Source: an uncultured Acidimicrobiia bacterium
GTDB lineage: Bacteria; Acidobacteriota; Terriglobia; Versatilivoradales; Versatilivoraceae
Length of the DNA stretch: 64,000 nucleotides
Assembly (NCBI GenBank): GCA_963791795.1
Contig: CAWBTP010000003.1
Span: 64,516-128,515, forward strand
Direction of reading: 5' to 3'
Under the pieces are notes generated by a model, which did not search any database, was not told the origin of the DNA, and saw only the letters and a list, made by a program, of their open reading frames with translations. The translations under genes and the position numbers were made by a program. Positions 2,764-50,867 of this stretch are shown here, one piece after another; position 1 is the stretch's first letter, and each line of letters begins with the position of its first letter.

Positions 2764-4218
2764 ATGAAAGCTACGATCCGGGTCTTGACCGCCATCGCGG
2801 TGTTCACGGCAACATGTGATTTTGGCTGGGCAAGCTACTGTATCTACGTCGGCAAGAACCTGACTGTCGACGGAAGTGTGTTTCTGGCGGGGTACGGAGA
2901 CGAGCCGTCGAGCCACTGGCTGGAGATCGTGCCTGCGCGCGAATGGCCGGCCGGCGCCACCATCAAGGTTGGGGCGACAGCGGCTTCGCAGTATCCAGGC
3001 ATGCTGATCGAGATCCCCCAAGTCCGGAGCACGGCAAAGTACATCACCATGAACTATTCTTCCTTTGCCGGATTTCCTCCGCCAATTACAAATGGTGGGC
3101 TGAATCAGCACCTGGTGGCAGCCCGTGATGTCTGGTCGCCGTCGCGCGAAGAGCTGCGAAAGATGACCCCCAGCCCACAGCGAGGACTCAACTACAGCGA
3201 TCTTTCCCGAATCGTCATGGAAAGGGCCAGAACCGCGCGGGAAGCGGTGGAGATCGTCGGTGAACTGGTCAATAAGTATGGTTACGCGACCTATGGCGGC
3301 AACTCACACTTGTTCGCGGACGCGGACGAGGGCTGGGTACTGATCGAGTTCGCGGGCGGCCAGGGACTCTGGGCGGCCCAGCGGGTGGGTCCGGATGACG
3401 TCCGTGTTTCGCGGCCCGGCTACATCGGTGAAATCCCGCTCGACTATCAAAAGAATCCTGGCTATAGGGGGTCGCCAAATCTCATCTCCTTCGCGGTCGA
3501 GAAAGGCTGGTATGACCCGAAATCCGGGGCTCCTTTTAACGTCAACAAGATGTATGGCGACGGCAAGATGCGGCACGAGGCGGTTGTAATGATGGAAGAA
3601 CGCCTGCGCAAGCTTGGCGGCAAGATCCGGATTGAGGACATGATAGCCGCCGTGCGAACCACTGAAGTCACCCGCGACTCGGCTGGCTATGGTCAGGTAG
3701 CTCATCTGCGAAAAGCGATCCCGCACCCGGCTCTCGGCGTGCTCTGGGTAGCAGCCGCAACACCCGTGACTGCGCCGTTTGTGCCATTCCGCTTGGGCGT
3801 GAGCGACGCGCCTCCAGAATTCAAGCGCCACCGTTATCTTACCGCAGGCGAAGCGGATCGCTTTATGGACAAAGAGTGGCAAGGGATCGAGTCAACGTTA
3901 TACGCATACCAAGCTTTCAAGCGGCTGTTCTATCTGACGAGCGAGCATCGAGACCAGTTTCTGCCGGAGGTCACTGCTTCACTGACAGCGTTTGAGGCGG
4001 GCCTCATCGCCGCTCAGCCCGCCGTTGAGCGAACGGCGTTGAAACTCTACGAAGCGCGAGAGCCGGACCTCGCCGGCACCTACTTGACGTACTACAGCAA
4101 TACCGAGGCAATGAATGGACTACGCCTGGTCGAGGCCTTGGCTTCCAGTGTCGAAGCTCGGACCAAGGTGCAGTTTGGCATCCGGAAACCGCAATCATCC
4201 AGTGCGCCCAAAGAGTGA
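2764..4218 (+). CDS. Peptidase C69-family dipeptidase (secreted, N-terminal Cys nucleophile)
   Basis: Signal peptide, then ...SYCIYVGKNLTVDGSVFLAGYGDE..., matching the C69 N-terminus pattern C-[TS]-x-[LV]-VGK-x-[AT]-[ST]-DGS. 484 aa, uninterrupted. Confidence 0.55.
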   Translation: MKATIRVLTAIAVFTATCDFGWASYCIYVGKNLTVDGSVFLAGYGDEPSSHWLEIVPAREWPAGATIKVGATAASQYPGMLIEIPQVRSTAKYITMNYSSFAGFPPPITNGGLNQHLVAARDVWSPSREELRKMTPSPQRGLNYSDLSRIVMERARTAREAVEIVGELVNKYGYATYGGNSHLFADADEGWVLIEFAGGQGLWAAQRVGPDDVRVSRPGYIGEIPLDYQKNPGYRGSPNLISFAVEKGWYDPKSGAPFNVNKMYGDGKMRHEAVVMMEERLRKLGGKIRIEDMIAAVRTTEVTRDSAGYGQVAHLRKAIPHPALGVLWVAAATPVTAPFVPFRLGVSDAPPEFKRHRYLTAGEADRFMDKEWQGIESTLYAYQAFKRLFYLTSEHRDQFLPEVTASLTAFEAGLIAAQPAVERTALKLYEAREPDLAGTYLTYYSNTEAMNGLRLVEALASSVEARTKVQFGIRKPQSSSAPKE

Positions 4219-4287
4219 GACCGATGAATAACACTGTGTCTGAAAATCACTTGGGCCGGAGTGGCCCGGAACCCTATCTCCACTGTG

Positions 4288-4613
4288 CCTCGATTCGTCA
4301 TTCCCGCGAAAGAACGTCACCCCGGCGGATCGTAAGCCGGGGCGGGAATCCAGCCTGGATTCCGGCTCGCGCTGCGCTTGGCCGGAATGACGAGGGGTCC
4401 TGCCGACTCTCAGCCCGCCCCCGCCAGTTAGGTTCTGTCGCGAAATACCGCAATGAGGCTCCCCTCCTTGGCCAAGGAGGGGATGCCGCGCCCAAGGCCG
4501 CGGCGGGGGTGGTTCGACAGGCTGGGGAAGAACCACACCAGCACCGGGATTCCAGTAGGTCGCACCACCCCTGTGGCGCTGCGCGCCACATCCCCTCCTC
4601 AACCGAGGAGGGG
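4288..4613. repeat. Cluster of GC-rich palindromic REP/MITE-like elements
   Basis: Unit 1 (4288-4400) is a nested palindrome cgtcattccc...gggaatccagcctggattccgg...ggccggaatgacg. Perfect palindromes cccctccttggccaaggagggg (4461-4482) and cccctcctcaaccgaggagggg (4592-4613). The overlapping ORF 4215-4907 gives the familiar spurious translation (...IPARAALGRNDEG...). Confidence 0.6.
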
Positions 4614-4803
4614 AGTTTTCCTGCCATCCTCCCGTTTCGCGACAGAAACCACTTAGGCTTTAAGACACGCTCTAACAACCTCCGCTCGAAATACCCTGAT
4701 CGCCTGCCTCCTCGTCTACCTGATCGCGATCGGAGCCTCTTCCAGGCTTTCCGCCGCGCCTGTTGCGCTCAAAGCTTCCTACAAGGTCCGAACCGAACGA
4801 GCA

Positions 4804-6778
4804 GTGATGATCCCCACGCGCGACGGCAAGCGGCTCTCGGGCGACGTGTTTCGCCCGGACGCCGAGGGACGTTTCCCGGTGATCATCATGTACCATCCGT
4901 ATCGTAAGGACGACGTCGGCCGGGGGGGCGTCGGCGAACACTTCTATTTCGCCGAGCGTGGCCTGGCATCGGTACGTTTGGACGCCCGCGGCACGGGTAC
5001 GTCGGAGGGGATCAATACTGATGAGTATCGCCTTCAAGAGCAGCTAGACGGTTACGACGCCGTCGAGTGGATGGCAGGCCAGCCCTGGTGTAATGGTAAC
5101 GTCGGAATGTACGGCGGCTCTTACAGCGGGTTTACTGCTATGCAGGTGGCTTCGCATCGCCCGCCCCATTTGAAAGCCATCGTGCCGCTCTACGTCACCG
5201 ACGACCGTTATACCGACGATTGTCACTATGACCGGGGCGGCAACATGCGCATGTACTACGACGTGGGCACCTATGGCGGAAACATGGTCGCCATGAATGC
5301 GCTGCCGCCGCTTCCGGAGCTGGCGGGAGCCAAGTGGGCTGAGACGTGGAAAGAGCGACTGGAGAATAACCAGCCGTACCTGCTGGAATGGGTGAAGCAC
5401 CAGGTGGACGGGCCTTACTGGAAGAACGGGTCGTCTGCGGCCCGACTACGATCGCGTGCAGGTTCCGGTGTTCCTGATCGGTGGCTGGCATGACGGATAC
5501 GTCAATGCCATGGTGCGCATGTACACCCACTTGAAAGGCCCCAAGAAGCTGCTGATCGGACCCTGGGTTCACACCCAGCCCCACGCGTCCGTCCCCGGGC
5601 CCCGCATCGACTGGATCAACGAAGCCTCCCGCTTTTTTGCGCATTGGCTTCGCAACGAAGACACTGGGATCATGAAGGAACCGCCGGTCTCCTTTTATAT
5701 GCAGGAGCCAACGAAACCGGATCGCAGACTCGACATCATTCCGGGCTCCTGGCGCAACGACGCGAACTTTCCCCCTTCCTCAGCCCGCGAGGTTGTCTTC
5801 CATTTGGCGGAAGGCGGCCAACTCACCAGCTCACAGGGCGCGAAACCGAAACAAGCTTTTGACGAGATCGAATACAAAAGTACTGTCGGATTGAGCAACG
5901 CCTTTTGGTCGGCCGGCAGCATCCGGTTCTATCTGGCGGACGATCAGCGAGCGGACGAAGCCTATTCCCTGGTGTATACGAGCCCGGTGTTTGAGCAGGA
6001 GACCCACTTGCTGGGTTGGCCGCAGGTGATTCTGCACGGCGCCTCGAGCGCCAAGGTGGCCTCGTTCGTTGCCAAGCTGGCCGATGTCGCCCCGGATGGC
6101 TACTCCGCGCTGATTACCGATGGCGCACTTAATGGGACCCGCCGCAAATCGTTGACGAATCCGGAGCCGATGCAGCCCGGAGAAATCTATGAGCTGAAGA
6201 TTCCAATGGCGCCCACTGGGTGGGTTATCCCAGCCGGACATCGGCTGCGGCTGGCGATCTCGAGCGCCGATTTTCCGAACTTGTGGCCAACGCCGTATCG
6301 AGCCACGAACCGTATCTACAGAGGAGGCGCTCATCTGTCCCGCGTCGTGTTACCCGTTGTGGCGAAATCCACGGTCGCCCCGCCGGAATTCCTTCCTCCG
6401 CCCAACCTCCACCGCCTGGTGACTTCGAGTGGGACGCCTCCCCTCCAGCAGGTTCTTTATGACCAGATTACCAACGCCGCTACGGTGCTGTTCCGTACCG
6501 GCGGCACTACGGTGCTGGACGACCAGCTTGGCTCCGTCATCGGGGACCATGACTTCCGTTGCACGGCGTCCGCCGATAACCCCGCCCAGGCCTCCATCGT
6601 CGGCACGCACAAGATAGCCTTCCGGCGAGAGGACGGTGACATTGAGGTGACTGCGGAAAGCACCATTCGCTCGACGGAGACCCACTTCCATGTGACGGTC
6701 AATATCCACGTAACCCGCAACGGCCTTACCTTTTTCCAGAAGCAATGGCTGCGCACCGAACCCCGGCAGCTTCTGTAA
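4804..6778 (+). CDS. CocE/NonD-family hydrolase (X-Pro dipeptidyl-peptidase S15-like), frameshifted
   Basis: ...PVIIMYHPYRKDD...ERGLASVRLDARGTGTSEG... and C-terminal beta-sandwich text. Two overlapping ORFs (4804-5493, 5456-6778) are joined by removing one C in gcggCCCgac (~5443), giving ...WKNGSSA|DYDRVQVPVFLIGGWHD. Confidence 0.7.
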
Positions 6779-20867: not shown

Positions 20868-20917
20868 ATCAGCTCCGTCCTCTGAAATGTTTTTGCGGAC
20901 GTGTCTTATCCAAGTGG
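20868..20917 (+). promoter_or_regulatory. Conserved ~50-bp cis element, copy 1 (ATCNGCTCCGYCYTCTGAAATGTTTTT-N3-GAC-N-TGTCTTATCCAAGTGG)
   Basis: Same element at 22081-22130 (45/50 identical) and 25731-25778 (more diverged). Each lies immediately 5' of a gene start. Confidence 0.5.
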
Positions 20918-20977: not shown

Positions 20978-21838
20978 ATGAAACCCAAGAACGAAAATAC
21001 TATCAACAGAGATCTTAGGGATCTGGCAGGATTGGAACGGGCAGCGTTCCCAAACGTCGTAGCGCGCAGCTTCACGGTGACGCCGGAGGCTGTGGAAACG
21101 GGTGGGTCAGTCACCGTTGCCTGGAAGGTGACCGTGCCGGATTCCGACGATATTGTTGAGCTGAAGCTGAATGGGCAATTGATTGGTGCCTTTGGTCAGA
21201 AGCGTTTTACCAACTTGACTGAAACCACTGACTTCGCACTGTCTGCCGCGACCGAGCGTGAAGAAAGGGTGCTGCGCAAGTTGAGAGTTCGCGTGGACAC
21301 ACCAGAGTGCCGGTGGGCGACCCCAGTCGAAGCCTTCGTGATCACCGCATTACTGAAGAAAGAGTTCGACGATCGCTTTAGCGGAAGCAGCCAGTTCAGT
21401 CTGCGTGGTAACGGAACTGTTGTGACTCTTGATGCCGGTGCGATCAACATCGCGGTGCCTGTGACGATCCACGTGGAGGACTGGTTCAATGCGGACATGG
21501 ACGTCGCGATCAAATTGTCGGTCACGGGAGGGGGAGGATCACCAGTCCTAGTACTGTCCCGCGGTGTTAGTCTCAATGTGAGCTGGTCTTTCTTCGAGCA
21601 TCTGCCCAGCCTGGGGTGCACGCATTTTGTCGAGAGCGGAATGTCGCAGTTGGGACAGGCGCTCATGTCGGATATTGTCAAGTCGGAACTGGTGCCTAAG
21701 GTCGCACGAGCGTTCAATGACCAGGTCGATAAGTTCATCAAAGAGGTCCAAGAAGGGGATCCGCAGCACCGGACGTACGTGTTGGCGTTCTTTGCGCTTT
21801 CGCCCGACGGCCTTAGGTTCAAGGTTTGCCCGGGGTAG
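20978..21838 (+). CDS. Hypothetical protein (286 aa, beta-rich, no signal peptide) immediately downstream of the CHAT gene
   Basis: Good RBS aaaggag. Ig-like stretch TVTPEAVETGGSVTVAWKVTVPD, then alternating-hydrophobic beta-strand text. No recognisable family. Confidence 0.5.
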   Translation: MKPKNENTINRDLRDLAGLERAAFPNVVARSFTVTPEAVETGGSVTVAWKVTVPDSDDIVELKLNGQLIGAFGQKRFTNLTETTDFALSAATEREERVLRKLRVRVDTPECRWATPVEAFVITALLKKEFDDRFSGSSQFSLRGNGTVVTLDAGAINIAVPVTIHVEDWFNADMDVAIKLSVTGGGGSPVLVLSRGVSLNVSWSFFEHLPSLGCTHFVESGMSQLGQALMSDIVKSELVPKVARAFNDQVDKFIKEVQEGDPQHRTYVLAFFALSPDGLRFKVCPG

Positions 21839-22080: not shown

Positions 22081-22130
22081 ATCTGCTCCGCCTTCTGAAA
22101 TGTTTTTCCTGACATGTCTTATCCAAGTGG
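22081..22130 (+). promoter_or_regulatory. Conserved ~50-bp cis element, copy 2
   Basis: atctgctccgccttctgaaatgtttttcctgacatgtcttatccaagtgg. Ends 14 nt before ATG 22144 of the S8 peptidase. Confidence 0.5.
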
Positions 22131-22143
22131 GTATGAGAACTTT

Positions 22144-23210
22144 ATGACACCGTTGGACCTGGTAAGACTTACAGCATTGACAGACCACACTACCGGTAGG
22201 CCCGATGTGATCATCGGGCTCATCGATGGACCTGTGGCGATGAACCATCCTGAGCTTGCTAGCGAGCATGTTCGCGAGATCGCTGGAAATGTCGAGGGGC
22301 GCCTGCACCCAGGCCAACAGCATGGCTTGCTTGCACGGCACTTTTGTGGCTGGGATTCTGTCCGCGAAGCGGGGATCGGTCGCTCCAGCGATTTGTCCCA
22401 ACTGCACCCTGCTGGTGCGACCCATCTTTGCCGAAACGACAACGGCGAACGGCGAGATGCCGAGCGCCATGCCCGAAGAACTGGCCCAGGCCATTCTCGA
22501 CTGTACTGATGAGGGCGCGCGCGTGCTGAACGTCAGCGCCGCTATAGCCCAACCTACCATAAAGAGCGAGCAGGCGTTAGAAGCGGCTCTGCATCACGCC
22601 GCCAAGCGCGGGGTCATCGTGATTGCGGCAGCGGGCAATCAGGGGACTCTTGGCAGTACAGCCATCACTGTCACCCGTGGGTGATACCGGTGGTGGGTTA
22701 TGACCTGCAGGGCAGGCCCATGAATCACTCGAACCTGGGAAGCTCAATTGGCCGGCGAGGATTGGGCGCACCCGGTGACCGAGTCACTAGCATTGGCGCC
22801 AATGGCAAGCCGCTGACCCTGGGAGGAACTAGTGCCGCCGCGCCTTTTGTGACCGGTGCCATTGCGTTGCTGTGGTCGGAATTCCCAACCGCTACAGCGA
22901 CTGAGATGAAATTTGCCGCTACCCACGCACAGACCGCAGGGCGAACACAGTCGTCCCGCCCCTGCTGGATGCCTGGGTGGCGTATCATCCTAATGATGAG
23001 GACGTAAAGACCATGCCTGAGGAAAAGACCAAAACCGAACGCCAGCCCTACCGAGTGCGCCTTCCAGGGTTCGTTAGCGACAAGGATATTGGCCTGGGCG
23101 ATGCCATCAAGCATGTGACTTACGCCCTCGGAATCCGACCCTGCGGTGGCTGCGAACGCCGGGCTGCCGCGCTCAACCGCTGGTTTGTCTTTACCGGGCG
23201 AACCAAGTGA
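22144..23210 (+). CDS. Small S8 (subtilisin-like) serine peptidase with C-terminal CxxC tail; three frameshifts
   Basis: Asp, His and Ser motifs all present but in different frames: VIIGLIDGPV (frame 1), HGTFVAGI (frame 2), GTSAAAPFVTGAIALL (frame 1). S8-type C-terminus ...PLLDAWVAY continues in frame 0 into ...IRPCGGCERRAAALNRWFVF*. Breaks near 22300, 22675 and 22945. Confidence 0.65.
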
Positions 23211-23248
23211 TCCAAGTCCGAAAAGATCCATCTTGAAGGAGGAGAACC

Positions 23249-24121
23249 ATGGACCAAGAAACGAAAGAACAATCAGCAAGCCGGGAAGAGACAAAGCGCG
23301 GTACTGCTCTGGTCACACCCTCTCAACGGGATGTCGTCGCAGCTTCGCCGGCCACAGAGACGCCCTGCCCCACTTGCGCTAGCGGTGCGGGTTCCATGCC
23401 GGTCTCTCACGTCTATGCGATTGGCCGGATCGAGGCGCGCTTCCCGCGCCTCTCGGTCGAGAAGGAATTCGCTCAGGCGGCAGGACGCGCCGAGACCGCG
23501 GGTCAGACCGATCAGCAGATGTTCTACAACGTGCTCTCCAAACCCGAGAGCCGGTATCTCGCCCGCCAGCTGTGCTGGGTGTTGATGATCCAAGGTCTCG
23601 AAACCTACATCGTGCAGCCTCGCGATCCCAGGGATTTCGATCGGTTGGTGGAGGCCATCCGCCCCCAACCAAGCCCCATGGATATCGATGTCGTCATTGG
23701 TATGCGGGGGCCTATCGCTCCGCCTGAGCTCTGCAATGGGCTCATGGTTCCGATCGTTGTATTTGACCAGATTTACTCTTTCGACCGCGATGCGCTCATC
23801 AAAGCCATCCCGCGGCCAGAGAAGATGACGGCAAAGCAGTATGAAGCGGCGGCGGGGGAAGTGTTCGATAGGATCCTGCAGATGACGGACAACGCAGGGG
23901 CGACGGATGACCACCGGACGCTGAACTACTTGGCCATGCGCTATCCTGGGATCTACGCCAAGACGGCGGAAGAATTTGCACGGGATTTTTCGCTAACTGG
24001 GGTCGATGTGCTTCCTTCGCCCTTGAGCGGCACGCGCAAGATCGTGGATGTGCATCTTTTCCTACACCAACCGCAACACCGATTTCACCGAGAAGTTTTC
24101 TGTGCGCTGCGATATGACTGA
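23249..24121 (+). CDS. Hypothetical 290-aa protein with N-terminal CPTC motif; possibly related to the PatA/PatG C-terminal DUF (low confidence)
   Basis: Strong RBS aaggaggag. ...TETPCPTCASGAG...HVYAIGRIEARFPRLSVEKEFAQ... loosely resembles the VYALGxLxYDFG...F.Q block recalled from the cyanobactin PatA/G DUF. Uninterrupted. Confidence 0.45.
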   Translation: MDQETKEQSASREETKRGTALVTPSQRDVVAASPATETPCPTCASGAGSMPVSHVYAIGRIEARFPRLSVEKEFAQAAGRAETAGQTDQQMFYNVLSKPESRYLARQLCWVLMIQGLETYIVQPRDPRDFDRLVEAIRPQPSPMDIDVVIGMRGPIAPPELCNGLMVPIVVFDQIYSFDRDALIKAIPRPEKMTAKQYEAAAGEVFDRILQMTDNAGATDDHRTLNYLAMRYPGIYAKTAEEFARDFSLTGVDVLPSPLSGTRKIVDVHLFLHQPQHRFHREVFCALRYD

Positions 24122-24272
24122 GGAGTTTCCGTTCTTGGTCACAAAGATGTCGCCGTACTATGACCGATGAACTTAACTAACCGAAAGGAGACATGAAATG
24201 AACGCTATTAATAGCGGCTAAAGCCGATCTTCGGGGCCCCAGCTTCGACCGAGACGATTAAACCTAACTAAG

Positions 24273-24305: not shown

Positions 24306-24530
24306 ATGAACACTATAAATATGCCTGGTTTTACCGCGGAAACCTCACTTTACAAGCACAGGACATCCTATCGCATGATGACAGGTCGCAATGGCAATGA
24401 CTCGTCCGGCGTCATTCCACAGATGGCCCCAAGCTGGATGTGTGAGTATGCGGGCGAGCAGTGTGACAATGATGATTTAATATACTGCAAGGCTTGGCGC
24501 TCTTGGAACTGTTTCCGCGGCAGCCTATAG
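24306..24530 (+). CDS. Small Cys-rich peptide (74 aa), candidate protease-processed precursor/bacteriocin-like peptide
   Basis: MNTINMPGF...MAPSWMCEYAGEQCDNDDLIYCKAWRSWNCFRGSL. Four Cys in the last 30 aa. A truncated look-alike start (ATGAACGCTATTAATAGCGGCTAA, 24198) lies upstream in the same frame. Confidence 0.4.
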   Translation: MNTINMPGFTAETSLYKHRTSYRMMTGRNGNDSSGVIPQMAPSWMCEYAGEQCDNDDLIYCKAWRSWNCFRGSL

Positions 24531-24725
24531 GACGTTGAGCAACTGCCGACCGAGAGTTGGGGGCGGGTGCACCTGCGACACCACGGTCACCGCGAGAACC
24601 GGCGACTGCGGTGATTGACTATCCGGCGCATGTCGGAATCGCATAAAAACGAGTGTTGTCGAACACGATAAAAAGGGGTCAGGCCTTGCATTCACGTATC
24701 CGGCCTAACGCTCCACCCGAGCGCG

Positions 24726-25652
24726 TTGTATCTCATGGCTACCTATGACGCATCGATCAAAAAGGCTTTGGATCCCCAGCAGGATGATCTCATCAAGCAC
24801 AAGGAGCATTGCTCGGCCGACCCCGAAAAGCTCGGGACGACCGGGCGGGCGCTCTGGCATCAGGTTCGGATCAAGCGCAACGACGACGAGTACGGGCTCT
24901 ACACGGTTAGCGAGGTGCGCCAGGAGAACCCGGACAACATCGTACGCATTGGCAAAGGCGGAAGAGAGCGACTCGGTACGAGCGACGAGTTTGACGGTAC
25001 GCTCGACTCGCAGGTGCCACATGCGACCCTCTCCGACGCGGAGGCCGAATGCAACGGCGAATTCGTCGAGCGGCTCGACGATGATGGCGCGCACACGGGG
25101 CTCATTGCCATCGCACCCCACGGCGGAGACATCGAGGCGTACACTGACCAACAAGCCGAGCGCGTCACGTCGCAGCTGGCGGGCAAGGGTGTCAGCTCGT
25201 GGCGATGCAAGGGCTGGCACCCCAAAGGAGCCTTTGACCACTGGCACATCACCTCGACCGATATCCACGAGGCGAGCTTTCCTCTTCTCAACTCGGTAAT
25301 CTCTCGGGGCTTCAGCAATGCCGTCGCCTTTCATGGGTTCGACGACGACAACATTCCGTTCGACATTCTCGTCGGCGGCCTCGCGTGCGAGGCCCTGAAG
25401 GAGAAGGTCAAGGGAGCCATCGAAGGCGTCGTCGGCTCGGATTTCACAGTGCACATAACGAAGCCGGATGAGCGGTTCGGCGGCGACGACAAGCGGAACA
25501 TCGTCAACCGGCTCACCGCTGGCGGAAGGCATGGCATCCAAATCGAGCAGAAAAAGGGGCCTCGAGAGAAATACGCGTTGCCCATCGCCGATGCAGTCGC
25601 CAACGTCTACGACTCCGAGCTCGGGCTACCCACTCAACAAAAACTGAATTAG
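24726..25652 (+). CDS. Poly-gamma-glutamate hydrolase (PghP/UPF0714)-like zinc peptidase with ~100-aa N-terminal extension
   Basis: ...LIAIAPHGGDIEAYTDQ... and ...AFHGFDD... match the H-x-x-x-x-E ... H zinc-site pattern recalled for the PghP family. Uninterrupted. Confidence 0.5.
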   Translation: MYLMATYDASIKKALDPQQDDLIKHKEHCSADPEKLGTTGRALWHQVRIKRNDDEYGLYTVSEVRQENPDNIVRIGKGGRERLGTSDEFDGTLDSQVPHATLSDAEAECNGEFVERLDDDGAHTGLIAIAPHGGDIEAYTDQQAERVTSQLAGKGVSSWRCKGWHPKGAFDHWHITSTDIHEASFPLLNSVISRGFSNAVAFHGFDDDNIPFDILVGGLACEALKEKVKGAIEGVVGSDFTVHITKPDERFGGDDKRNIVNRLTAGGRHGIQIEQKKGPREKYALPIADAVANVYDSELGLPTQQKLN

Positions 25653-25730
25653 TCAAACCCACGGATCCCGCTTCAAAGCAGCGGCTTTCGCTCGCCCTCT
25701 CGCCCCCGCATGTGACCATTCAACAAAACC

Positions 25731-25778
25731 GGCCATTCAGCCCTATGAAATGTTTTCGCGGGAATGTCTTATCGAAGT
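25731..25778 (+). promoter_or_regulatory. Conserved ~50-bp cis element, copy 3 (diverged)
   Basis: ggccattcagccctatgaaatgttttcgcgggaatgtcttatcgaagtga. About 210 nt upstream of ATG 25989. Confidence 0.45.
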
Positions 25779-25988
25779 GAAAGCGAGAAGCCTCATCAGA
25801 CGCGTTCCGCTTTCTGTGAAGCCCCGGCTCAACACACACTATCAGCTGAAAAGAAAAAGACGGTCCCTGAGAAAAGCCATTCGATCACCGAGATCTTGAT
25901 GGGGCCTTTTACCGCCGGAAGCCGCTCAAGCAAGAGCCCAGCGGAAACACTCGCCGTCCAGAAGGGCAAGGCGACTAGGGAGGACAAC

Positions 25989-27575
25989 ATGATTAGGATT
26001 CGGACAGCATGCACTCTGACTCTCGGAGTGCTGTTTGCAGCTTGCAGTTCACTGATAGTTCTCGGTCAGCTGATCGACAGGACCAAGGCGCCTAACACGG
26101 CTGGTGCGGGCATCGGCAAGTCCCTGGCTGAACAAATTGGCGTTGGGCGGGGCGATGCGATGACGCCTGACTCTTCCTGTTTCACTATCAATCGTGATCC
26201 CTTTCGAGCCATTCGGCGAGGGCGTCAGCTCTTCCAGCGCAAGTTCACTCGAGCCGACGGACACGGGCCGAACGTCGGTGACGGCAACGGCGACATGAAT
26301 GCGACGCTAGCAATCGGTGCCGGATTGGCCGACAGTTGCGCAGGTTGTCATGGACGTCCGAGCGGCTCGGCTGGCTTCGGCGGTGACGTGGCTACCCGGC
26401 CAGATAGCCGGGACGCACCTCACCTTTTCGGACTTGGACTTAAGGAAATGCTGGCAGACGAGATCACACAAGACCTGCGGGCTATCAGGGCCCAGGCTCT
26501 GCTGCAATCCAAGAGCACAGGCCAACCTGTCAGCCAGCGTCTGTTTAGCAAAGGAATACGTTATGGATGGATCACCGTGCAACCCGACGGTTCAGTGGAC
26601 ACTTCCAGGGTCCAAGGAGTAAATCCTGATCTCCGCGTCCGCCCTTTCTTTGCGCATGGCGAAACCATGTCCATTCGAGAATTCGTGGTCGGAGCCCTGC
26701 AGAATGAAATGGGTCTTCAAGCTGCGGATGCCGAGCTTGCTCAGGCGCGTGCTGGAGGCAAAGTTACCACTCTGGCCGGCATGGTGCTGGATGGATCCCT
26801 CGATGAAATTGAGGCTCCGCCCACAGCTGATCCGCTGGCTGATCCCGATGAGGACGGCGTCAAAAATGAAGCACCGGAGAGTTTGGTGGACTTTTTGGAG
26901 TTTTACCTACTCAACTACTTCAAGCCGGGAACCTACGCACAAACGGCGACTACCGAGAGGGGCCGTTATCTATTCCAGGGTGTCGGCTGTGCCAGTTGTC
27001 ATCGACCCAACCTGTTACTCAACCGGGACCGACGCGTGGCCGACGTGGAGACTGCCTACGATCCTGACCGCGGCATCTTTAACAATCTGTTTGCCACCGC
27101 CATGCCGCTGAACATTTCAGTCAATGACACCTCGGGTTTTCCTGCCCTAAGGCGACCGAAACTGGACCCTTTCCTCGTCACGAATATCTTCACGGACTTC
27201 AAGCGGCACGACGTTGGTCCGTATTTTTATGAACGGAATTACGATGGATCGCTTCGAAAACAGTTTCTGACGACGCCCTTGTGGGGAGTAGGAAGCACCG
27301 CTCCTTATGGCCATGACGGACGCAGCTTGAATCTGACTGAAGTGATATTGCGTCACGGCGGGGAAGCGCAAACCTCACGCGATCGATTTGCTAGTTTGCA
27401 GGAGGACGACCGGTTGGCTTTGCTCGCTTTCTTGAGTTCATTGGTGGTGTTTCCTCCCGACGACACCGCATCCAACTTGGACCCCGGAGATCGCAACACG
27501 CCCAACTTCCCACAGTCTGGCCACGGTAGTATCAAGTTGGGAGTTTTGTTCAACGATCCTCATGATCCAGAATAG
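25989..27575 (+). CDS. Di-heme c-type oxidoreductase/peroxidase-like protein (DUF1111 family)
   Basis: Signal peptide MIRIRTACTLTLGVLFAACSS; two CxxCH motifs (CAGCHGR, CASCHRP); ~530 aa. RBS gggagga. The track ORF start 25764 is an upstream over-extension. Confidence 0.65.
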   Translation: MIRIRTACTLTLGVLFAACSSLIVLGQLIDRTKAPNTAGAGIGKSLAEQIGVGRGDAMTPDSSCFTINRDPFRAIRRGRQLFQRKFTRADGHGPNVGDGNGDMNATLAIGAGLADSCAGCHGRPSGSAGFGGDVATRPDSRDAPHLFGLGLKEMLADEITQDLRAIRAQALLQSKSTGQPVSQRLFSKGIRYGWITVQPDGSVDTSRVQGVNPDLRVRPFFAHGETMSIREFVVGALQNEMGLQAADAELAQARAGGKVTTLAGMVLDGSLDEIEAPPTADPLADPDEDGVKNEAPESLVDFLEFYLLNYFKPGTYAQTATTERGRYLFQGVGCASCHRPNLLLNRDRRVADVETAYDPDRGIFNNLFATAMPLNISVNDTSGFPALRRPKLDPFLVTNIFTDFKRHDVGPYFYERNYDGSLRKQFLTTPLWGVGSTAPYGHDGRSLNLTEVILRHGGEAQTSRDRFASLQEDDRLALLAFLSSLVVFPPDDTASNLDPGDRNTPNFPQSGHGSIKLGVLFNDPHDPE

Positions 27576-48639: not shown

Positions 48640-50867
48640 ATGGCGTTCAATCGAATTCTGGTTCTATTGATTGTCGGCCTGATCGCAATTCTCTTCATCT
48701 GGCCAAGTGACCAGGCAGTAACTCAAGGAATTCAGTTCCCCCAGCCAAGCCCACATTTGTCTCCTCAGAAACCTGTAAGTCCTGTCATGCCGAACGGCAT
48801 GAGACCTGGCTGAAAACCGCTCACGCTTACTCGCTGCGCGAACCTTCTGCCGAGGTCGTAGCAGGCCGATTCGACGGCAAGCCCGTTGAGACGCGCTATT
48901 TCACGGCGACTCCGTTCCGTCGCGACGGAGGGTTCTGGATTCGTGTGGATGCAAAAGACGCCCGGCCATCGGGCGAGTTCAAGATTTCGAGAGTGATCGG
49001 CCGTACTTTCGAGCAAGCCTATCTCTTCACCGGCCCTAAGGGAGAATGGCGAGTCCTGCCGCTTTGCTGGAGTCTGGAACGGCAGCAATGGGACCTCACA
49101 CATCGGGTTCTCGACGACATCAGCGGCGGCATCAGCGTCGGAGAGGACTACGACACGCGTGAGAAGATCTTCAACGATGGTTGCGGCCAATGTCATGCCA
49201 CGCAGTACGACATTGGCTACAACACGCGCACTGATTCCTATGCCTCAAAGATGCTGGAGGGCGCTGTGGCTTGTGAGTCGTGTCACGGTCCGGGCTCGGC
49301 GCATGTGGCATGGCACCAACAGAAGAGGACAGCCAGGCTCGGCCTATCAGTCGCCGGCACGGCTGTTGCATCCGAAGAAAGACCTGGACGCCAAAGGGGT
49401 GCTCGAATCGTGCGGGCGCTGTCACTACAAGCACATCTGGCGCTACGCCATCGACGAGGATCCGCGCGTTGGGTTCAACGAGATCGCCATTTCGCAAAAC
49501 CACGACAGCCTGGGATTCTTTGCCGATGGGCGCCTTTCCGGTCTTGAATTACAACGGCTCTACACAATCGCAGAGTGCGTGTTTCAAGGGCGGCATGAGT
49601 TGTTTGAGCTGCCACCAGATGCACGGCGGCAAGCGTTGGGCGATGCGGTGGGAAGAGAACGATGACGCTCAGTGTGCGCAGTGTCACGCCAAACTGGTTG
49701 CGGCCTCACAGCCACATACACATCACAAGGATGTGCGTTGTGTCGATTGCCACATGCCAAAGTTCCTCACAGGCGTACTGCACACCATGCGAGACCACTC
49801 GATGCGCAGCCCGGAGCCTGAACTCACCGAACGTTTTCAGGCCGCGAATGCTCCCAACGCTTGCTCTAACTGTCACCAGGATCGACCCCTTTCGTGGATG
49901 CGCGAGTGGAAAGCGAAGTGGTGGAAGCCGACACCCCAGCGGATGGTCGAAAATGTCGGCTTGGTCGTCGACTTGAGGCGGCGCGCTCGCGTCGAAACGC
50001 AGCGGCTGGCGACGACAGCTGAGGATCCCAGCCAACGGACTTTTTTTCCGGCTCACCGCCATGCGCAAGCTGGCAGAGCTGTCCGATGAAGCCGCTCGCG
50101 CCAGTCTGCGACGCTTGCTTTCAGATCCACATGAAGAAGTCCGGCAACTGGCTTGCGCCGGCATTGCAGAACAGCCGCATCCGGAGGCTGCCGCCGCGCT
50201 GCTAAAGTTACTCGAAGACCCGGTGCGCACCGTTCGCGTTGAGGCGGCGTATGCGTTGGTGCGCTGCGGCTGGCGTGGAAGCACTCCAGCTTTCGAGCGT
50301 GTTTACCTGGATGCCGTGAAAATGCTCGAGCGGCAGAAGACATTCGATGACATTCTGGAGAGACTCGTCCCATTGGCCGACGCCAGCGGCAAGAATCGCG
50401 AAATGGCCGACCATCTGGCGCCGCTCTTTCGCAACCCCAACCGGCCGCGCACGATGGGCGACCTGTTGCAACGCCGAGGGCGCTCGCTGGCAGAGGAAGG
50501 GAACCACCCCGGTGCGCTGGATCTCTACGGCCAGGCCGTGGACCAATATCTCCGGATCTCCGGCTCATCCGGTCAAGCTTTGCCTGATCTGCTCTACATC
50601 GATCATGCAGCTTCCCTCCACGCCTTGGGGCGCCGTCAGGAAGCCGGCTCCGACTGGCAGCAACTGCTCGCACAGGCTCGACCCGGAAGCGTGCCACAGC
50701 TCATTGCCTCGGCGCGCCTGGCGTCTCTATCGGGAGTGGCTCTCAAAGAAACACAGGCGCTCGAAGCCGCGGTGGACCGACTCAAGAATGAAGCTTGGGC
50801 GGGGGAACTCCTGCGCCGTGCCCGATGGGAGATCAATGCCTTGTCTCCTGCACCATCCCGTCGCTGA
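48640..50867 (+). CDS. Multiheme c-type cytochrome with C-terminal HEAT/PBS-lyase-like repeats, at least 4 frameshifts
   Basis: Signal/TM MAFNRILVLLIVGLIAILFI. CxxCH motifs across frames (CKSCHAERHETWLKTAHA, CGQCHAT, CESCHGP, CLSCHQMHGG, CAQCHAK, CVDCHMPK, CSNCHQDR). Breaks include a CCCCC run (~48735) and a TTTTTTT run (50041-50047) that joins ...AEDPSQRTF(F) to RLTAMRKLAELSDEAARASLRRLLSDPHEEVRQLA... Confidence 0.55.

Follow-up and report, generated by a model that had tools for sequence, protein, structure and literature searches.

The DNA considered here is a stretch of 64,000 nucleotides (the window) from contig CAWBTP010000003.1 of GenBank assembly GCA_963791795.1, and its subject is a cassette of three successive genes on the forward strand (Table 1). 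The first gene encodes a serine protease of the Peptidase_S8 (subtilase) family, the second a 65-residue protein with an invariant CxxC motif, and the third a protein composed of the PatG_D and PatG_C domains, the 'domain of unknown function' (DUF) found as the C-terminal half of both PatA and PatG. A gene for a candidate precursor peptide follows. A first-pass annotation of this DNA had described a mini-subtilase broken by three frameshifts, with the CxxC peptide as its C-terminal tail. Comparison with homologous loci indicates that the 65-residue protein is a separate gene rather than a protease tail, and the subtilase with a CxxC tail, as reported, is most likely not real. The locus is probably an ordinary member of an S8, 65-residue CxxC and PatG-DUF cassette that has been broken by four insertions or deletions (indels) in the protease gene, which are most likely assembly errors. 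The cassette is assigned to the PatA-type leader-peptidase systems, as a variant for which no description was found in the literature searched.

Table 1. Features of the cassette and related elements (positions are those of the window unless a locus is named; aa, amino acids; nt, nucleotides).
Feature	Position	Strand	Remarks
34-nt motif	22097..22130	+	GAAATGTTTTTCCTGACATGTCTTATCCAAGTGG; just upstream of S8 start
S8 (PatA/PagA-like) serine protease gene	22144..23007	+	864 nt as assembled; 861 nt (286 aa) after removal of four indels
S8 Asp motif	22213-22236	+	IGLIDGPV; frame 1
S8 indel 1	22293..22299	+	one extra base: C22293 (removal gives family consensus NVRGACTQ) or one G of GGGG 22296-22299
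S8 His motif	22328-22354	+	CLHGTFVAG; frame 2
S8 Asn motif	22625-22645	+	AAAGNQG; frame 2
S8 indel 2	22668..22669	+	one base absent (ATCAC-TGT against ATCACCTGT in L007); restores Asp-motif frame
S8 Ser motif	22822-22848	+	GGTSAAAPF; frame 1
S8 indel 3	22946..22947	+	one base absent (CGAAC-ACAGTC against CGAACGACAGTC in L007)
S8 C-terminal block	22950-22985	+	VVPPLLDAWVAY; frame 0, the frame of the 65-aa ORF
S8 indel 4	22988..22991	+	4-bp insertion TCCT; found in none of five aligned relatives
Shine-Dalgarno sequence of 65-aa gene	22998..23002	+	GAGGA; 10 nt before ATG 23013, within S8 3' end
S8 conserved stop	23005-23007	+	TAA (..MMRT*); kept in frame 1
65-aa CxxC protein, separate gene	23013..23210	+	MPEEKTK...PCGGCERRAAALNRWFVFTGRTK*; invariant CxxC (PCGGC, 23139-23153); RLPGF motif; no indel
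PatG_D + PatG_C ('cyanobactin DUF') gene	23249..24170	+	306 aa after removal of one extra base, C24053
CPTC at N-terminus of DUF protein	23366-23377	+	
Candidate precursor peptide gene	24306..24530	+	74 aa; leader MNTINMPGFTAETSLYK...GVIPQ, then core MAPSWMCEYAGEQCDNDDLIYCKAWRSWNCFRGSL with four Cys; intact
Further precursor arrays	L001 5181-5552, 5864-6172; L002 10444-12176		shared leader, hypervariable cores

The protease gene and its four indels

Reading frames were assigned from a three-frame translation of positions 22090-23215 together with the list of open reading frames (ORFs). The subtilase is present in pieces, and the frame changes that had been placed near 22300, 22675 and 22945 are borne out by a Pfam PF00082 match, by the translations and by alignments. 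The further statement that the catalytic Asp, His and Ser sit in three different frames is correct as to the splitting of the frame but not as to its details: Asp and Ser share frame 1, His lies in frame 2, and frame 0 holds the C-terminal block alone. When the pieces are stitched together, the corrected protein aligns with the S8 profile (PF00082, Peptidase_S8; E=4.8e-22; score 79 bits, cut-off 21.8 bits; positions 3-274 of the 288-position profile), and a protein homology search returns homologues with E-values down to about 1e-154. The corrected protein is exactly 286 residues long, the modal length of the family, and ends AYQMMRT* at TAA 23005-23007, as does the homologue P0002. It has neither a signal peptide nor a propeptide. 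In a 14-sequence alignment the catalytic D (IGLIDGP), H (CLHGT) and S (GGTSAAAP) and the oxyanion N (AAGNQG) are all invariant, in the order Asp-His-Ser, and the window protein can be assigned to Peptidase_S8 with a predicted Asp-His-Ser triad and oxyanion Asn. An uninterrupted reading frame is wanting in the window copy, which is broken by four indels.

Four cysteines are invariant in this S8 clade, at window positions 22300-22420 (residues ~53-87). Two flank the approach to the catalytic His in a C-x7-C arrangement (G-A-C-T-Q-x-x-S-x-A-C-L-H-G-T), and the remainder occur in the motif A-I-C-P-x-C; a clade-specific metal site or two disulfides beside the active site could result from them.

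The indels were located by DNA alignment of the window with the intact loci L001, L003, L005, L007 and L008; the intact loci compared overall were L001, L002 and L003-L008, of which L007 is the closest, at 91.6% DNA identity. Four frameshifting indels were found where three had been reported, the TCCT insertion at 22988-22991 having been missed by the first-pass annotation. They comprise +C, -C (within CC), -G and +TCCT, and alignment with L007 places at most one of them in a GGGG run. The earlier description of the frameshifts as changes in homopolymer length is thus not upheld, and homopolymer error was rejected as their sole cause since the indels lie mostly outside homopolymers. The TCCT insertion alone throws the S8 stop out of frame and brings the PLLDAWVAY block into the frame of the 65-residue ORF. 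In a scan of JGI metagenome contigs, the allele with the TCCT insertion had no match, and the neighbouring WVAY 23-mer had as its sole match a distant relative (67% identity) with separate genes and without the insertion.

The gene for the 65-residue CxxC protein

In the sequence as assembled, there is no stop between the PLLDAWVAY block and the 65-residue ORF, and both lie in the same frame, exactly as the first-pass annotation had observed. The ORF at the end of this reading also exists, but its true end is ...FVFTGRTK* rather than ...FVF*, and the small gene has its own ATG at 23013. The proposal that the CxxC peptide is the C-terminal tail of the subtilase is contradicted by the homologues. 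The 120 best S8 homologues are 265-316 residues long (mode 286) and stop at ..LLDAWxAYQxMRx*; they cover 71-80% of the fused query, and since a fused relative would have outscored homologues of 286 residues, there is no fused relative among the best matches. In the intact loci, called genes for 286, 65 and 305-306 residues occur in succession, and the order S8, small gene, PatG_D/PatG_C is found in about 70 of the 80 genomes carrying the small gene, across at least 10 phyla. Deviant gene orders are small-DUF...S8 in two loci (L019 and L063) and S8-DUF...small in another (L054). The S8 stop is followed by 5 nucleotides and then by the small-gene ATG in the same arrangement in L001 and L002 and, judging from the gene layout, the 65-residue gene is translationally coupled to the S8 gene.

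No S8-small fusion was found among the 120 best S8 matches, the 120 best small-protein matches or the longer proteins checked in the best 150 clusters of a profile search with the small protein. The longer proteins with the small domain comprised four AhpC-TSA/redoxin fusions, one frame-scrambled protein with a partial PatG_C, and proteins with unrelated domains. Apparent S8-small 'fusions' encoded by a single ORF of 354-368 residues are present in three of the 80 genomes (L006 3938-5002, L046 5101-6195, L074 5077-6183); these are frameshift artefacts, because the canonical PPLLDA..YQ..* block is retained in another frame. Annotation pipelines would list artefacts of this type as unusually long subtilases. 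They call for caution with indel-rich assemblies, in which a translationally coupled ORF can falsely seem fused to the gene before it when a frameshift falls close to that gene's 3' end.

The 65-residue protein itself belongs to a family with thousands of standalone members. It has 4072 database matches, of which the best 120 are all 65-78 residues long and the best are 88-92% identical, and the profile search over 1.8 billion representatives yields 1915 clusters, nearly all of the best 150 listed being 60-125 residues long. The family pattern is PxRxRLPGF...GLGD...PCxGCxxRAAxLNRW, with C44 and C47 among the invariant columns; the window protein fits it, including the site just upstream of the PatG_D/C gene. 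The protein has no match in Pfam, NCBIfam or PADLOC and a single weak match in PHROG, to which no function is assigned there; a PDB sequence search with the small-protein profile gave no match. AlphaFold2 modelling from a 29-sequence alignment gives two predicted helices, with a predicted local distance difference test score (pLDDT) of 54 and a predicted template modelling score (pTM) of 0.23, and this low-confidence model places the CxxC at the start of a predicted helix. A thioredoxin fold and an autonomous Cys4 zinc finger were both rejected as candidates, given that the protein has only two Cys, no Pfam match and a two-helix model (pLDDT 54).

A clear copy of the 65-residue domain is embedded in membrane-anchored redoxins of the TlpA/AhpC-TSA type (clusters P0332, P0340, P0369 and P0382). 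There it reads ..LPGF..GLGD..KPCxGCERRAAxLNRW.. and is placed ahead of thioredoxin-fold domains, or between them, these domains carrying a CxxC of their own; unlike these redoxins, the window protein stands alone, without a thioredoxin fold, within a protease cassette. Recurrence of the same domain inside TlpA-like redoxins suggests a link to cysteine chemistry. The invariance of the CxxC, its location at a predicted helix start and the paired cysteines of other cassette components would be consistent with either cysteine chemistry or inter-chain metal binding. An (L/M)PGF motif is common to the small protein and the leaders of the candidate precursor peptides, so that both could use one docking site.

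Origin of the frameshifts

Frame disruption in this window extends well beyond the cassette. At least nine genes besides the S8 and DUF genes are split between frames (for example at ~909, ~5433, ~20523, ~30675, ~34668, ~41936, ~44227, ~46992 and 49300-50000). Pfam profile coordinates run on across the frame switch for OMP_b-brl_4 (twice), Peptidase_S15, PSCyt2/PSD1, DUF1501, CHAT and Pkinase, and the domains of a multihaem cytochrome and of an FG-GAP/ASPIC protein lie on overlapping ORFs in different frames. A frame-aware Viterbi model detects 13 direct frame switches in the window, compared with 1-2 in control loci, where they are real gene junctions. Any gene-level reading of this window needs frame correction. 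When the corrected S8, small and DUF genes are compared with those of intact relatives, the ratio of nonsynonymous to synonymous substitution rates (dN/dS) comes to 0.14-0.23, like the 0.14-0.18 measured among the intact relatives, so that relaxed selection is not indicated.

The pattern is reciprocal with that in L007, the nearest public relative, a Microflora Danica nanopore metagenome-assembled genome (MAG) with 90-92% DNA identity to the window. Where L007 positions 3500-6500 align with window positions 24725-27575 (90% identity), the window is intact and the L007 orthologues, Gamma_PGA_hydro-like and cytochrome-c-peroxidase-like genes, are split by single-base indels; in the cassette the reverse applies, the window being broken and L007 intact. 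The Microflora Danica MAGs were assembled with Flye from Nanopore reads alone and polished in a single Medaka round (PMC12313526). Of the 80 loci, those from such nanopore MAGs have a broken cassette in 8 of 24 cases, the others in 3 of 55 (p=0.002). As a separate observation, the label Acidimicrobiia carried by L007 fits poorly with the outer-membrane barrel and PSCyt/PSD1 genes of the window. Since the frameshifts are pervasive and reciprocal with L007, and dN/dS gives no sign of decay, sequencing or assembly error is the best explanation, in agreement with the first-pass view of an S8 protease interrupted by sequence errors. The five cassette indels (four in S8, one in the DUF gene) would then be consensus errors of an error-prone assembly of the long-read type, and the four in the window copy of S8 are most likely technical.

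Several observations weigh against this explanation. The four S8 indels fall within 861 nucleotides, a density some 15-20 times that of the window on average (Poisson P about 1e-4). A uniform error rate across the window was rejected on account of this enrichment, and an origin in error requires local clusters of errors, such as there also seems to be in the cytochrome gene at 49.3-50.0 kb; one conjecture for the S8 cluster is that reads from related cassettes of the same community were drawn in while the consensus was built. A homopolymer error is possible for just one of the five indels in the cassette, and another is a 4-bp insertion, whereas the indels inside both genes of the comparable L007 region are all of a single base. 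The verdict on the indels is drawn from assembled sequence, and real mutations keep some probability.

It is unlikely, in particular, that the three 1-bp indels are errors and the TCCT insertion is real, the S8 protein then reading into the 65-residue ORF and gaining a lineage-specific CxxC tail. Correction of the three 1-bp indels does leave one ORF with the structure S8(1-281)-HPNDEDVKT-small(65); the 4-bp insertion differs in kind from the single-base indels of comparable genes, and the S8 end varies in length after AYQ across the family, so changes there are tolerated. Yet the insertion is found in none of the five aligned loci and its allele is absent from the JGI contigs, no fused protein occurs among the best matches, and every other apparent fusion seen in public genomes is an artefact. 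Moreover, the canonical MMRT* end and the Shine-Dalgarno sequence and ATG of the small gene are intact around the insertion, and a further one of the gene's four indels lies 41 nucleotides away from it.

Real indels throughout, making S8 and perhaps the DUF gene recently inactivated pseudogenes in a decaying cassette, are likewise improbable. Decay would accommodate the raised indel density in S8, the predominance of indels that are not of the homopolymer type, and the 3 of 55 loci outside the Microflora Danica nanopore MAGs in which the cassette is also broken. It is opposed by catalytic and invariant positions that are free of nonsense and missense changes, by dN/dS values equal to those of intact pairs, by the intact state of the small gene and the precursor gene, and by frameshifts in at least nine unrelated window genes that are reciprocal with L007. 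Programmed ribosomal frameshifting, or another form of recoding that yields the full-length protease, is barely credible and was rejected: nothing beyond the presence of frame changes speaks for it, the orthologues are uninterrupted, with more than 100 homologues and about 70 loci encoding the protease in one unbroken frame, and the four shifts, which differ in sign, include a +4 shift and fall at sites neither slippery nor conserved, look like no recoding signal.

With the frameshifts read as assembly errors, the locus beneath the artefact is the more interesting object: a PatA-like protease parted from its DUF by a conserved 65-residue CxxC protein that lacks a family assignment, the whole occurring at 60-92% protein identity in ten or more phyla beside arrays of hypervariable Cys-rich peptide genes.

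Candidate peptides, distribution and relation to PatA

Leader-bearing ORFs lie downstream of the cassette in 59 of 82 loci, with one to six per locus and 126 unique sequences. Their leader consensus is MNMPGFTAEASLYKT, in which P, F and L are conserved at 100%. A [VI]xPQ motif follows the leader in 54 of the 126 unique ORFs and ends at median residue 38; cysteines number 0.1 before PQ and a mean of 5.8 after it, the count after PQ being even in 51 of the 54. A Pfam and NCBIfam scan gave no model match for the precursor-like ORFs or the leader. From its organization, the locus has the layout of a leader-peptide maturation locus, with predicted products that are hypervariable and probably disulfide-bonded. 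In L001 (5657-5836) and L002 (10983-11246), and also in L020, L022, L023, L039, L051 and L081, extra precursor genes are preceded by short segments that copy part of the PatG_C gene's 3' end (..VDVTEEFPFLVTKLSPYYDR). These copies suggest that precursor cassettes have been duplicated or exchanged by recombination at that sequence.

After removal of C24053, the DUF protein matches both PF18047 (PatG_D; E=3e-33, 114.9 bits, cut-off 27) and PF18065 (PatG_C; E=8e-34, 116.5 bits, cut-off 25.9); a PDB sequence search with the protein returned no significant chain match. It has an N-terminal extension of the form ..(I/V)xPQxG-CxxC-G, about 15-25 residues before PatG_D (window 23300-23390; L003-L082), in which the CxxC is found in 46 of 64 loci and CxC in several more. 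A metal site shared by the small protein's CGGC and the CPTC of the DUF protein, as the first-pass annotation suggested, would thus join an invariant CxxC to one present in 46 of 64 loci, and it stays a hypothesis. The PQ of the extension is similar to the leaders' putative cleavage motif, which raises the possibility that the DUF protein is a substrate or pseudo-substrate of the S8 protease.

The cassette occurs across at least 10 phyla, with small-protein identities of 56-92%. Hosts include Acidobacteriota, Planctomycetota, Chloroflexota, Alpha-, Beta- and Gammaproteobacteria, MAGs labelled Deltaproteobacteria, Desulfobacterota, Verrucomicrobiota, Spirochaetia and others. Among Actinomycetota, it is carried by cultured Streptomyces, Kitasatospora, Spirillospora, Herbidospora and Actinoplanes, and cultured Nitrosospira also carries it; cultured carriers include Nitrosospira sp. 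Nl5, Streptomyces huiliensis and Herbidospora mongoliensis. This host distribution points to horizontal spread. No account of the cassette turned up in literature searches on the leader motif, the Pfam accessions and allied terms, and PADLOC returned generic subtilase matches only, giving no support for a known defence system.

Immediately around the cassette, the adjoining ORFs encode a 286-residue protein without a family match, a Gamma_PGA_hydro protein and a CHAT protein. The 34-nucleotide motif upstream of S8 recurs at 20884-20917, upstream of ORF 20978-21838 (0 chance matches expected), and its core is found again at 25764-25779, where the cytochrome-c-peroxidase-like gene starts; the motif is probably a shared promoter or regulatory element, possibly a promoter of the extracytoplasmic function (ECF) type. 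In L007 the same motif directly precedes S8, and the segment 20918-22096 of the window, which holds the 286-residue ORF without a family match, accordingly resembles a 1.2-kb insertion bounded by the repeat.

A working model can be outlined from these components. The cassette consists of a cytoplasmic PatA/PagA-like subtilase of 286 residues, the coupled 65-residue CxxC protein and the PatG_D + PatG_C protein, followed by peptide genes in which a PGFTAEASLY..[VI]xPQ leader precedes a hypervariable core whose cysteines are even in number. The S8 enzyme would serve as leader peptidase, cutting at or near PQ, with the DUF and small CxxC proteins as non-catalytic partners in substrate docking, in thiol-disulfide or metal handling of the Cys-rich cores, or in both. 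Taken further, the cassette could be a horizontally mobile, undescribed peptide-maturation system, in which a split PatA and an obligatory 65-residue CxxC protein act on hypervariable, even-Cys and presumably disulfide-bonded peptides sharing the PGFTAEASLY...PQ leader, and in which the paired cysteines of S8, small protein and DUF form inter-subunit metal or thiol-disulfide relay sites, a modified version of the shared site of the first-pass annotation; this proposal is tentative and somewhat doubtful in its entirety. Observed directly are the genes of the cassette with their order and conservation, the PatA-like affinity of the protease and the leader-core organization of the peptide ORFs; cleavage at PQ and the roles given to the DUF and small proteins are inferred from sequence features. 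Two points count against the functional model: no function is so far assigned to the PatG DUF, which failed to bind linear substrates in vitro (PMC4259220), and the AlphaFold model of the small protein is not confident (pLDDT 54). The PatG-type domain was still termed a DUF in 2025 (PMC12639078), and the simpler cassette of three genes, with its culturable hosts, might offer a tractable way to learn what the cyanobactin DUF does. The cassette may also define a new class of ribosomal peptides.

Among solved structures, the cyanobactin N-terminal proteases PatA and PagA are the nearest relatives of the window S8 (PDB 4H6V, 3ZXX and 4H6W). In a PDB sequence search with the corrected protein, PagA (4H6W) ranks first at E=1.8e-29 and is followed by PatA at 1e-22 (3ZXX, 4H6V and 3ZXY, to 5e-22); ordinary subtilisins appear at about 1e-13, 9-16 orders of magnitude behind the cyanobactin proteases. 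The full-length model TIGR03895 (PatA/PatG, 606 positions, cut-off 421 bits) is not reached by either part, the S8 protein scoring 93.8 bits over positions 1-179 and the DUF protein 28 bits over positions 300-556. Nor does the locus qualify as a cyanobactin cluster, there being no PatD-like heterocyclase or PatG macrocyclase adjacent in the immediate neighbourhood.

Like PatA and PagA, the window S8 is without signal peptide or propeptide and is adjoined by small leader-bearing peptide genes. It differs in that three of the four invariant Cys of its clade are missing from PatA and PagA. The precursors also differ from cyanobactin ones in their PGFTAEASLY...PQ leader and long, Cys-rich cores, and cyanobactin pathways are those of cyanobacteria, whereas the hosts here are Acidobacteriota, Planctomycetota, Proteobacteria, Actinomycetota and others. 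The DUF protein has the same PatG_D + PatG_C composition as the PatG DUF (PDB 4UVQ), but here it stands alone, with an N-terminal extension that usually bears ..PQxG-CxxC-G. The suggestion of the first-pass annotation that the locus mirrors PatA split into separate genes thus proved sound, as the S8 protein is nearest to the PagA/PatA structures and PatG_D + PatG_C are encoded downstream. Where PatA holds S8 and a C-terminal DUF in one chain, these are separate proteins here, with the DUF encoded two genes downstream and the 65-residue CxxC gene in between, and the comparison supports a reading of the cassette as PatA split into separate genes with a conserved third gene between them.

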